This document shows positions 59,301 through 62,300 of a stretch of DNA of 64,000 nucleotides, in pieces (the first letter of the stretch is position 1; the number at the start of each line of letters is the position of its first letter). Position numbers: made by a program. This stretch comes from Escherichia coli (GTDB taxonomy: Bacteria; Pseudomonadota; Gammaproteobacteria; Enterobacterales; Enterobacteriaceae), in the NCBI RefSeq assembly GCF_041248615.1, contig NZ_CP158426.1; one strand, 5' to 3'.

Positions 59301-62300
59301 ACCGCGTTCCACGGGGATTCCACACCGGCACCATGGCTATACCCCACCCCGAGATGCCCGCTTAACGAACTGCTGAATGAGGCTTTAATACCTGCCTGGT
59401 ATATTCCACGCCTGCCCGACAAATCATTGACGAAATTACCGTCATTATTCACCTTCACCCGGTTATCATCGACAAATTCTTTGCGCACAGCCGCCTTCAG
59501 CCACGGCTCAATTTCCATACCGTTCCCCAGACGCATGTTGTAACTCAGCGTTGCGCCCAGTTCACGATATATACTGCGGGTATCGACTGATTTCGATTCC
59601 ATGCCATTGGATAAATGATATTCGGGGTTATCAGCGGTGAACCCCGTTAACGATGCATACGGCGTCAGGTTCCAGTTACCATCGGTAAATCGCATCCCGG
59701 TTTCAATGTGACCACCCAGCCCGTTGCTGCGATAACTGCCGTTGGCGGCTCCACCGCTGCTCATTTTACCGGCTACGTTACTTTCAAAGCGGTTCAGCTT
59801 CACGATACCGTCCAGATAGAAACCACTTTCATGTTCCCAGCTGGCATAGCCCCCCAGAGAATAACTGCCCACACTGCCATGCCCTCCACGATCAAAACCG
59901 ATATGTGAATGGGAATAACCCATAAAAGCGCCCAGCGTCGCAATCCCCTCAGGAATATCATTACGGCTATCGATCCCCACCGTCATTCCGGTCAGCGTCT
60001 GCTCAAACCCGGCACCCGCATCGGTGGTGACATTATTACGGGTGTTATACGTCGTCCCCCAGAGATTATTGTTGTGTGGACTCGCTTTCATTATGTTCAA
60101 CCGCTCGCGAATACTGTTTAGCTCAGCATCAAAGACCAACGGTAATGTTGCTGCCATATTGAGTACGGCAGCCGTAGAAGGCGTGATGCGTTTCTCTGGA
60201 ACGGGTGTCGGCGTTGGCTCGGGAGTCGGGTCTGGATTTGGATTTGGATTTGGGTTCGGATTTGGGTTCGGATTTGGGTTCGGATTTGGGTTCGGATTTG
60301 GGTTCGGGTTCGGGTTCGGGTTCGGGTTCGGATTTGGATTTGGATTTGGGTTGACATTATTAGTCAGGTTCCAGTTGCTGTTGCCGTCGCTTTTCAGGAC
60401 ATACTCATAGGTCCCAAGATCAACGAAACCGCCGGTATTGCCCAGCGTAAACGACGCATCCCCTCCCCCTGTTTTCACCAGCGTCATCGCATCGTCAGAC
60501 TGAGGGCTGACGCCGGTATCCTGAACAAAGATTTTAAAATTACCAGTGGCGTTGTTGTTGACGATCAGTTGATCGCCCCGGGAGCCTGCAACGTTGGTAT
60601 GCAGGTAGAAATTACCGCTGCCGGAAAGTTCACTGGTGGTCAGCGTATTGTAGATATCGTTAGTTGTGGCAGGCGCTGATAAATAAACATCACCGTCGTT
60701 GAGTAGCAAACTGTTTACTCTATATTCGCAGTTGCTGGTGCCTGCACAGGAATTATTGCTGTTAAGCCAGACACTGCCCCGGCTGGCAGCCGTCAGGTCG
60801 GCAAGCGTCGTATCGACACCATTTCCCAGAGTTAATGTCGCGCTATCGGTAATCCGGACCGCCCCTTCAAGTTTTACTGGCGTAACATTATCCCGTGGCG
60901 TCATTAACGACAGGCTTCCTGTCGCGCCACTGACCGATGCATTCGCCAACGTACCTGCGTAGACGATTGCCGTCCCACCAGAGACCTGTAGATCTTCTGC
61001 CCGGGCCAGAGCCTGAAACTCATCTTTTGACCGCCCAAGGGTATATTGCCCACCAGAGTTAACCTTTGTGGCGGAGTCCTGACCCAGGTTTTGCATTGCA
61101 CCACCCTTGTCAACCGTGGAGTCACGGGCTTCGGTACCTGCTAATACCAATAAATTACCGCCATTTTCCAGCAACATATTGGTCGCTAAATTGCTGGCAA
61201 TGGAAAAGGTGCCGTACTGGTGCGTACCGCTGATTTCAATACCGTTAGCCGTGCTCGTCTGGAGAGCGGCACCGCTGTTCTGGACGATATCTGTCGCTTT
61301 GCCATTATCGTTGACTGTCAGCGTTCCGCCTTCATTGATCGTTGTTTTTATTGCCTCTCCGTTAGCTGAAACTGTTTGTATTCCGCCGTCGTTAATTGTT
61401 GTCTCATTTGCCACACCCTCGACGATTTGTTCACCGCCAGTGAGCGTCGTGCCTGTCGCAGTGGCTTTTGTTTTGACGATCTCCCGACCGCCCGCATTAA
61501 CCTGTGTTTTGGCGGAAGTGGTGTCTGACTCCACGGTTAACACGCCGCCATTTGTCAGCAGGATATTGTTCGCCGCACCCTGCTCGATGCTGAACGCGAC
61601 GCCATCAGCGCGTGTCCCTGTGACCCGCGTCGCCCTGGTGGTTGCAACCAACGCGCCCTGACTACTCTGCTGTATCCCCGTTGCGCTGCCTTTCTCCCGC
61701 ACATCGAGTATGCCGCCATTGTTAAGTCTGGTGGTATATGCTACGGCCTCCTCGTGGACAATCAGCTTACCGCCAGCATCAACGATGGTATCTACCGCCG
61801 AGGTTTGAGCTACGACCGTCAGTTGGCCGGTATTTTCCAGCACAACATGCTCAGCCCTGCCTCCGGTAATAGTGAAGTGAGATGACCTCTGGTATCCATC
61901 AATATCAGTCCCCGCGCCCGTATTGGCAACTAAAGCGCTCCCCGTGTCCAGGTAAACCCCATGTGCGATACCGCCGGTATCGACAATCAGCGTGCCTCCG
62001 GCGCGAATATTGCTGCCAGTTGCCGTACCTCCTTTCTCAACAACCTGCTTGCTCCCGGAAGAGATATTTGTTGTGTCAGCTTTCCCGCCGCTCTTGATAT
62101 TTTGCGTGCCACTGTTGATATTGGTTCCCGTAGCAATACCATGATTATAAATATTCTGTGTACCGCCATTAATTATGGTATTAGTCGCGTTCCCGGCAAC
62201 ATCCATGGCCCCGCCGTTATCTATTCGGGTCGCATCAGCTTTAGCATTCGTTAAAACTGACATTGTTCCTTTATCGTTAATTATCGTCCCTGTAGAAATT

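Follow-up and report, generated by a model that had tools for sequence, protein, structure and literature searches.

An in-frame (Asn-Pro)n variable-number tandem repeat in the passenger-barrel spacer of an Escherichia coli autotransporter encoded between minE and ymgJ

Introduction

Does a short tandem repeat within a surface-protein gene change its length between strains while the gene stays in frame, and is that length under selection? The question is raised by a 64,000-nucleotide stretch of Escherichia coli contig NZ_CP158426.1 (assembly GCF_041248615.1), called the window below, in which a minus-strand gene for an adhesin-like autotransporter carries 20 consecutive Asn-Pro (NP) codon pairs. 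A sequence-only reading had described the run as a hexanucleotide repeat encoding a linker, prone to slipped-strand expansion and contraction, whose changes would alter passenger reach from the cell surface without breaking the frame. Comparison of complete genomes showed 10-38 NP units at this locus, always in frame. Very probably, the array is an in-frame variable-number tandem repeat (VNTR) that forms the (Asn-Pro)n core of a length-tolerant X-Pro spacer, its polymorphism being mainly a by-product of slippage.

Results

The array is an in-frame tandem repeat of Asn-Pro codon pairs

The gene and the parts of its repeat are listed below in window coordinates. Units are named on the coding strand as a (AACCCA), b (AATCCA), c (AATCCG) and d (AACCCG).

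59279..62638, minus strand: autotransporter coding sequence (CDS), 1120 amino acids (aa), WP_001590060.1, annotated YpjA/EhaD; stop codon 59276-59278
60233..60352, minus strand: (NP)20 array, 20 in-frame hexamers, coding order a b2 c d4 (ac)4 a b3
60305..60328, minus strand: pure AACCCG x4 sub-run (d4); most other alleles have 2 copies
60257..60304, minus strand: 12-bp sub-repeat (AACCCA-AATCCG)x4; 2-8 copies in other alleles
60233..60250, minus strand: AATCCA x3, a pure sub-run that closes the array on its C-terminal side; the most variable tract, with 3-16 copies elsewhere
60191..60232, minus strand: non-repetitive proline-rich tail DPTPEPTPTPVPE, kept in both paralogues with an E/D variant

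The units read GG(A/G)TT(T/C) on the plus strand and AAY-CCR on the minus (coding) strand, over an array length of 120 bases. In coding order, positions 60233-60352 are AAC-CCA (AAT-CCA)2 AAT-CCG (AAC-CCG)4 (AAC-CCA AAT-CCG)4 AAC-CCA (AAT-CCA)3. The codons that follow, GAC CCG ACT CCC GAG CCA ACG CCG ACA CCC GTT CCA GAG, encode DPTPEPTPTPVPE, and the protein around the array reads ...NWNLTNNV(NP)20DPTPEPTPTPVPEKRITPST... The earlier placement at 60234-60352 had the region right, with its register one base off. Its estimate of about 20 copies of GG(A/G)TT(T/C) is exactly 20 hexamers; these are not uniform, being of several distinct 6-bp kinds with a 12-bp sub-structure.

Tandem Repeats Finder (TRF) reported the array with a period of 6 (60233-60349, 19.5 copies, score 108) and, as a better fit, with a period of 12 (60234-60352, GGATTTGGGTTC, 9.9 copies, 91% matches, score 182). 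No other tandem repeat in the whole window is stronger. With its short, near-identical units set head to tail, as found by TRF, and with copy numbers that differ between strains (below), the array is a VNTR. At the protein level, the longest dipeptide repeat was 20 units, compared to a maximum of 3 in 2000 shuffles of the residues of the same protein. Of the 40 prolines in the protein, 26 fall within the 54-aa linker made up of array and tail (48% Pro there versus 1.3% elsewhere), and 40 of these 54 residues are a perfect NP repeat.

Three further open reading frames (ORFs) arise from reading the repeat in another frame. All of them lie inside the autotransporter CDS and consist of repeat-derived low-complexity sequence. 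Two, GFGFGF and QIQIRT, had been called artefacts already, and both are present; the third is DLDLGS.

60024..60410, plus strand: spurious ORF …GFGFGF…, repeat read in another frame
60118..60357, minus strand: spurious ORF QIQIQIRTRT…, repeat read in another frame
60205..60354, plus strand: spurious ORF DLDLGSDLGS…, repeat read in another frame

The array is placed between the passenger and the membrane barrel

Domain searches, structure alignments and a structure model were used to place the array within the protein.

60362..60718, minus strand: pertactin-type C-terminal passenger (autochaperone-like) domain, PF03212, matching pertactin 1dab; directly N-terminal of the array
60083..60181, minus strand: predicted long alpha-helix plugging the barrel (AlphaFold2), starting 4 residues past the linker tail
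59345..60064, minus strand: autotransporter beta-barrel domain, PF03797, with Vag8 and BrkA matches and an AlphaFold2 model

Pfam searches returned six AIDA repeats (PF16168, E=6e-88), a Pertactin domain (PF03212, residues 643-761 in a numbering that starts three codons upstream, E=1e-45) and an autotransporter beta-domain (PF03797, residues 861-1100, E=5.4e-46), which bears out the assignment of the in-frame (NP)n run to a minus-strand autotransporter. The N-terminus, MNRISRYYFHRSVLSLLIAAMIYAPPGMTA, is signal-peptide-like in appearance. With barrel, pore helix and beta-helical passenger all recognised in sequence matches and model, the protein can be classed as a classical (type Va) autotransporter of the AIDA/pertactin type.

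In sequence comparison with the PDB, the segment before the array aligns with residues 419-534 of pertactin 1dab (E=3.6e-16). The alignment with BrkA 3qq2, a structure that opens with the pore helix, begins 36 residues past the array at AELNSIRERL, and the barrel also matches Vag8. An AlphaFold2 model of the last 490 residues, built on a 32-sequence alignment, had a mean predicted local distance difference test (pLDDT) score of 82.9. Values below 50 were confined to fragment residues 135-184, the sole low-confidence part of the 490, where no secondary structure was predicted. In the same numbering the NP run covers 133-172, the tail 173-186 and the whole linker 133-186. The last predicted passenger beta-strand (125-129) ends 4 residues ahead of the array, and a 33-residue helix (190-222) leads into barrel strands with pLDDT of about 90. 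Because structure alignments and model agree in putting the array between the pertactin-like end and the pore helix, it is predicted to be the core of a non-folding spacer between passenger and plug helix, located where the barrel opens to the outside. The description of the array as a linker is thus upheld.

Two kinds of database match to the repeat were rejected. A Pfam match to Trypan_PARP (40.8 bits against a cut-off of 100) and PDB matches to circumsporozoite protein reflect compositional likeness to X-Pro/NP repeats and no homology. Asn-Pro bonds are cleaved at rates of days to months; spontaneous cleavage as a timer of passenger release was set aside, as there was no evidence for it.

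Copy number differs between strains and the frame is kept

Twenty-two orthologous alleles at the minE locus, all from complete-level assemblies, were read base by base. NP counts ran from 10 to 38: 10 (one allele), 19 (two), 20 (the window), 22, 23, 24, 27 (three uninterrupted alleles), 29, 30, 32, 33 (two), 34, 35, 37 and 38 (two). The remaining two alleles are interrupted, one with 27 NP and a terminal Asn-Leu (NL), the other with 14 NP, NL and 11 NP. These NL units, AATCTA or AACCTA, lie inside or end the array; no other amino-acid change was seen in it. An identical unit number in all strains is therefore refuted. Outside the 22, the window allele recurs in a second genome, which is 100% identical over a 2201-base minE-to-repeat query.

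Alleles of the main clade share one skeleton, a b c d2 (ac)n a b2 c a (b)m, and differ in run lengths alone. The sub-runs that change are the 12-bp (AACCCA-AATCCG)n block and the 6-bp runs of AATCCA, AACCCG or AACCCA. Copy numbers are 2-8 for the (ac)n block, 3-16 for the terminal and 2-5 for the inner b run, and 2-4 for the d run. In the more distant alleles, a-runs or d-runs are expanded instead.

In a search with an 801-base query from within the CDS, all matched-length differences were multiples of 6 at both paralogues, and two further searches gave, among their best 60 matches, spans consistent with the alleles read. Identical alleles came from separate studies and countries (K_EC180 from Korea and ETEC1748 from Belgium; P15-25 from France and ETEC4070 from Belgium), and strains deposited twice had the same span both times. 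The expectation that 6-bp changes would keep the frame was borne out, with no frame-breaking change in the array. Because its 6- and 12-bp units are multiples of three and all alleles are in frame, the array is not a phase-variable on/off locus. Frameshift switching within the array was likewise rejected as a candidate. The two genes annotated as frameshifted, in K_EC180 and HCP5S3_I2, have each lost one G in a G7 or G6 homopolymer of the beta-domain, and these losses are either real inactivation or long-read homopolymer errors.

Array length changes faster than the flanking sequence

Ten genomes of pig enterotoxigenic E. coli (ETEC) and oedema-disease strains from five countries (Belgium, Netherlands, France, Korea and Japan) carry 8 different arrays of 27-38 units. 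Their (ac, b) run lengths are (5,7) twice, (7,8), (7,9) twice, (8,8), (8,9), (6,15), (6,16) and (8,12). Over about 4.1 kb of flank, the same ten genomes show one single-nucleotide polymorphism (SNP), a few homopolymer indels and one insertion sequence (IS) junction. Three other groups of near-identical haplotypes behaved alike, among them SCU-105, WP8-S18 and PRO_A-1401 (1-3 SNPs apart; 19, 29 and 30 units) and AST240, E300010 and SW4848 (1-5 SNPs apart; 22, 23 and 24 units).

Since at least 7 array changes stand against one substitution in 4.1 kb, the rate of change of the array would, on a rough estimate, exceed that of a single base by a factor of at least about 10^4. The E. coli mutation rate is about 2e-10 per base per generation, and an equally rough array rate of the order of 1e-6 to 1e-5 per generation or more is suggested.

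The array gene is an intact form of ycgI

The Prokaryotic Genome Annotation Pipeline names the array gene 'adhesin-like autotransporter YpjA/EhaD'. Against K-12 YpjA the protein is 81% identical over 1006 aligned residues, and about 95% identical over the C-terminal ~800 residues, where the linker is the sole substantial difference. Sequence identity thus agrees with YpjA; the chromosomal locus does not, since the array gene is flanked by minE and ymgJ, whereas the true ypjA of K-12, EDL933 and ZF8-1 adjoins ssrA/CP4-57. Between minE and ymgJ, MG1655 carries the 344-bp pseudogene ycgI (b4521), and direct comparison showed that K-12 lacks window positions 59621-62667, a 3047-bp deletion. Because of this position, and of the deleted ycgI found there in K-12, the array gene can be identified as the intact form of ycgI, a paralogue of ypjA and not the ypjA locus itself.

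The minE-proximal half of the gene was found in about 424 of 5426 complete E. coli genomes (~8%). About 2556 of the 5426 have one or both paralogues, which are ~91-95% identical around the linker, and many carry both. In many strains the gene is deleted, disrupted by IS elements or frameshifted. IS elements were seen at the gene in W13-16, EC556 and 2018-05-2CC, with an IS1203 insertion within the gene, ISCro1 at the 5' end and IS1A immediately upstream. The IS insertions and the K-12 deletion suggest frequent loss of the gene.

A 39-codon ORF (62703-62822, minus strand) immediately precedes the autotransporter gene and overlaps ymgJ; it is annotated as hypothetical, and as 'ATPase' in some genomes. 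A counterpart is present upstream of the true ypjA in K-12, EDL933 and ZF8-1. As this ORF precedes both paralogues, the duplication that gave rise to them took in the 5' leader. Among public database entries for YpjA/EhaD are very large clusters of 'partial' fragments (e.g. 2224 members of 291 aa) that begin shortly past the linker. Short-read assemblies probably break near the linker, either within the repeat or where the paralogue duplication has its boundary.

Other features of the window

A second autotransporter gene, ycgV (17919-20786, plus strand, 955 aa), encodes an X-Pro linker in two blocks, IPEPTPNPEPTPAP…NPDPTPAPAPTPKP, before the pore-helix region; this linker is not a tandem DNA repeat. 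A further autotransporter of the ECIAI39_1904 family, ycgH-like and a pseudogene in K-12, starts at 63983-64000 and runs beyond the window end. The inverse autotransporter ychO lies at 1-548. With ycgV, the array gene and the autotransporter at the window end, the segment therefore holds three autotransporter genes plus ychO.

Between cvrA and dadX, a 478-aa 'hypothetical protein' (40302-41738, plus strand) has leucine-rich repeats of the LPxxL..C..N.L type and acidic, coiled-coil-like ends. Its gene contains two in-frame tandem DNA repeats, at 40627-40761 (period 12/36) and at 41468-41503 (9 nt x4, LEKLEKLE). The protein resembles a leucine-rich-repeat protein of effector-like type.

Discussion

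Probable slippage in a putatively length-tolerant spacer

The array is pieced together from short homogeneous tracts, namely 6-bp runs of AATCCA, AACCCG and AACCCA and the 12-bp AACCCA-AATCCG run. Replication slippage is the standard route of change in arrays built of 6-12-bp units and shorter than about 250 bp. Whole units would be gained or lost from these tracts, most probably by slippage, because the changes are confined to pure sub-runs while the interruptions stay fixed. The slippage-prone nature claimed earlier for the array agrees with this pattern and with the different counts seen on near-identical haplotypes. As the units are multiples of three, the frame would be kept and only the length of the spacer altered.

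The spacer is predicted to join the last beta-helix rung of the passenger to the alpha-helix in the outer-membrane barrel, which would place it at the cell surface. It would be non-folding and extended. X-Pro repeats such as those of TonB and procyclin are extended and fairly stiff. If the array were polyproline-II-like, each unit would add at most about 0.6 nm, giving a predicted extended length of about 12 nm for 20 units and of 6-24 nm over the alleles. A longer linker may thus give the passenger greater reach. This physical inference is a reasonable hypothesis, because O-antigen can hide surface epitopes and repeat number tunes reach or adhesion in other surface proteins.

Whether such reach is selected is a separate matter. 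In a contingency-type locus, length would be selected to match the thickness of O-antigen or capsule, lifting or hiding the passenger. The wide range of counts (10-38), the rapid turnover within one clone and the position of the array at the passenger base would all fit, and O-antigen shields autotransporter and intimin epitopes (PMC4858243). According to work cited in PMC9704523, reach in Periscope surface proteins is tuned by repeat number, which also modulates adhesion by the Cha autotransporter. Adaptive tuning is nevertheless unlikely, as mutational input in the pure tracts fully explains the pattern and many lineages hold one allele; gene loss, IS disruption and frameshift in many strains also argue against strong selection. 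More doubtful again is a minimal 'periscope', in which the array would serve as an inherited stalk whose length, at about 0.6 nm per unit, could be adjusted rapidly and would be selected by lineage to set the passenger above or below O-antigen or capsule. If true, exposure of the adhesin and its immune visibility would be switched in a graded rather than an on/off manner, and the pig ETEC/oedema-disease clone with its 27-38 units would be an example of ongoing selection.

Three other explanations are improbable to a still greater degree. Antigenic variation, with the NP repeat as an immunodominant surface epitope or decoy, comparable to pertactin repeat regions or Plasmodium NANP repeats, and length changes evading antibody, would draw on a position homologous to the proline-rich region past the pertactin-type domain, on the known repeat polymorphism of pertactin and on a peptide chemistry similar to that of circumsporozoite NANP repeats, as seen in the compositional PDB matches. 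It is very unlikely, as the number of identical NP units leaves the epitope sequence unchanged and there is no amino-acid diversification in the array except the two NL units. We give equally little credence to gene conversion or recombination with the paralogous ypjA linker as the main source of variation. Many genomes do hold both copies, with the identity around the linker given above, and the E/D variant of DPTP(E/D)PTPTPVPE occurs in both paralogues; yet the Lys and Asp codons of the ypjA linker (KPDP/NPDP units) are never found inside minE-locus NP arrays, what changes is simply the length of runs, and the pig clade, where variation is greatest, has a single gene copy. Least probable of all is an origin of the differing counts in errors of sequencing or assembly. 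Short reads do not easily resolve arrays of 60-230 bp, and homopolymer indels, possible errors, do occur in the flanks of some assemblies. The assemblies compared are, however, of complete level, the differences are always whole 6- or 12-bp units within a conserved skeleton, identical alleles come from unrelated studies and countries, and duplicate depositions agree.

The best reading is thus that the polymorphism is mainly mutational and the length weakly constrained, and the frequent deletion, IS disruption and frameshift of the gene fit weak selection. Several observations weigh against slippage in an extended spacer, or temper it. Nine records share one array span, and all K-12 derivatives are identical at ypjA. 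The pure tracts of the window allele are short (d4, (ac)4 and b3), and a second genome carries that allele unchanged. The array is not hypervariable; because several lineages share one allele, its rate is moderate and depends on the allele. Slippage is read only from the pattern between strains, and the extended-rod geometry of (NP)n is assumed. Circumsporozoite repeats of the NPNA type form turns and are more compact.

Use of the alleles

As a length marker of high resolution, the array separates isolates that are identical over kilobases (8 alleles in 10 genomes of pig ETEC and oedema-disease E. coli). Its alleles also form a natural series, with 10-38 NP units in an otherwise constant protein, for the effect of linker length on display through lipopolysaccharide, which would be useful to adhesin biology and to the engineering of surface display. 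Counts of 'ypjA' by name or homology may merge two loci in surveys of adhesin repertoires. The practical value is modest, and current understanding is not overturned. Variation in in-frame repeats of proline-rich linkers in surface proteins is ordinary and to be expected.

Comparison with known systems

In the searched library, which is incomplete, no description of NP-array polymorphism was found; no paper held both 'ypjA' and 'tandem repeat', and 'ycgI' with 'autotransporter' returned one unrelated review. The marker is also not among the loci of the GECM-10 scheme for multiple-locus VNTR analysis (MLVA). Four coding loci of that scheme, CVN014, CVN015, CVN016 and CVN017, have 6-bp units of in-frame type, vary between strains and resolve isolates within a clone, as the array does. 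At up to 3 mismatches, 0 of the 20 GECM-10 primers (taken from PMC8143711) match the window or the ypjA loci. Identity of the array with CVN014 or CVN016 was therefore rejected for want of a primer match; moreover, CVN014 is present in all isolates, whereas the gene described here is present in ~8% of genomes.

A close relative is YpjA/EhaD of E. coli K-12 and O157:H7, which shares the architecture, the upstream 39-aa ORF and an (X-Pro)n linker ending in the DPTP(E/D)PTPTPVPE tail. It differs in locus, and the passenger of the array protein is shorter (1120 aa for the whole protein versus 1526). The true YpjA linker, KPNPDPIPNPKPDP…, is a shorter, heterogeneous (K/N/D-P)n run compared to the homogenised (NP)n here, and its length differs among K-12, EDL933 and ZF8-1. 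A homologous-protein search limited to 8000 candidates, which returned mainly fragments and more distant homologues, gave (D/K/E-P)n linkers in Escherichia albertii and Citrobacter and none in YejO-type homologues. On these comparisons, together with the spacers that YcgV and TibA have at the equivalent place, a proline-rich spacer at this position can be regarded as a family trait. Particular to the present gene is its homogenisation to pure NP in near-identical hexamers, which now form a VNTR.

In Bordetella pertactin, a (PQP)n region lies past the domain that matches the segment ahead of our array, and isolates differ in the repeat regions of this protein. Its repeats are of another unit and another chemistry, and the polymorphism there is of a few units compared to 10-38 here. 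In TibA, a self-associating AIDA-type autotransporter of ETEC, the junction region is separated from the membrane domain by a 'proline-rich domain' of about 50 residues (627-677; PMC3835316). The 54-residue linker described here occupies the same topological position, from junction/autochaperone to membrane domain. That paper describes no pure dipeptide VNTR in the TibA segment, whereas the present array consists of near-identical hexamers and is polymorphic. In Periscope proteins, highly identical tandem DNA repeats vary in number among close strains and alter the length of a stalk that carries a functional domain (PMC9704523). Variation in the number of highly identical tandem repeats in a surface-anchored protein is seen here too; in contrast, the Periscope repeats are independently folding domains that form rods, and the unit here is a dipeptide with no predicted fold and pLDDT below 50, so that in the strict sense the array protein does not belong to the Periscope proteins. 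Set beside these systems, the array is a VNTR within the coding sequence for an autotransporter's proline-rich linker, and the kind of system to which it belongs is already known.

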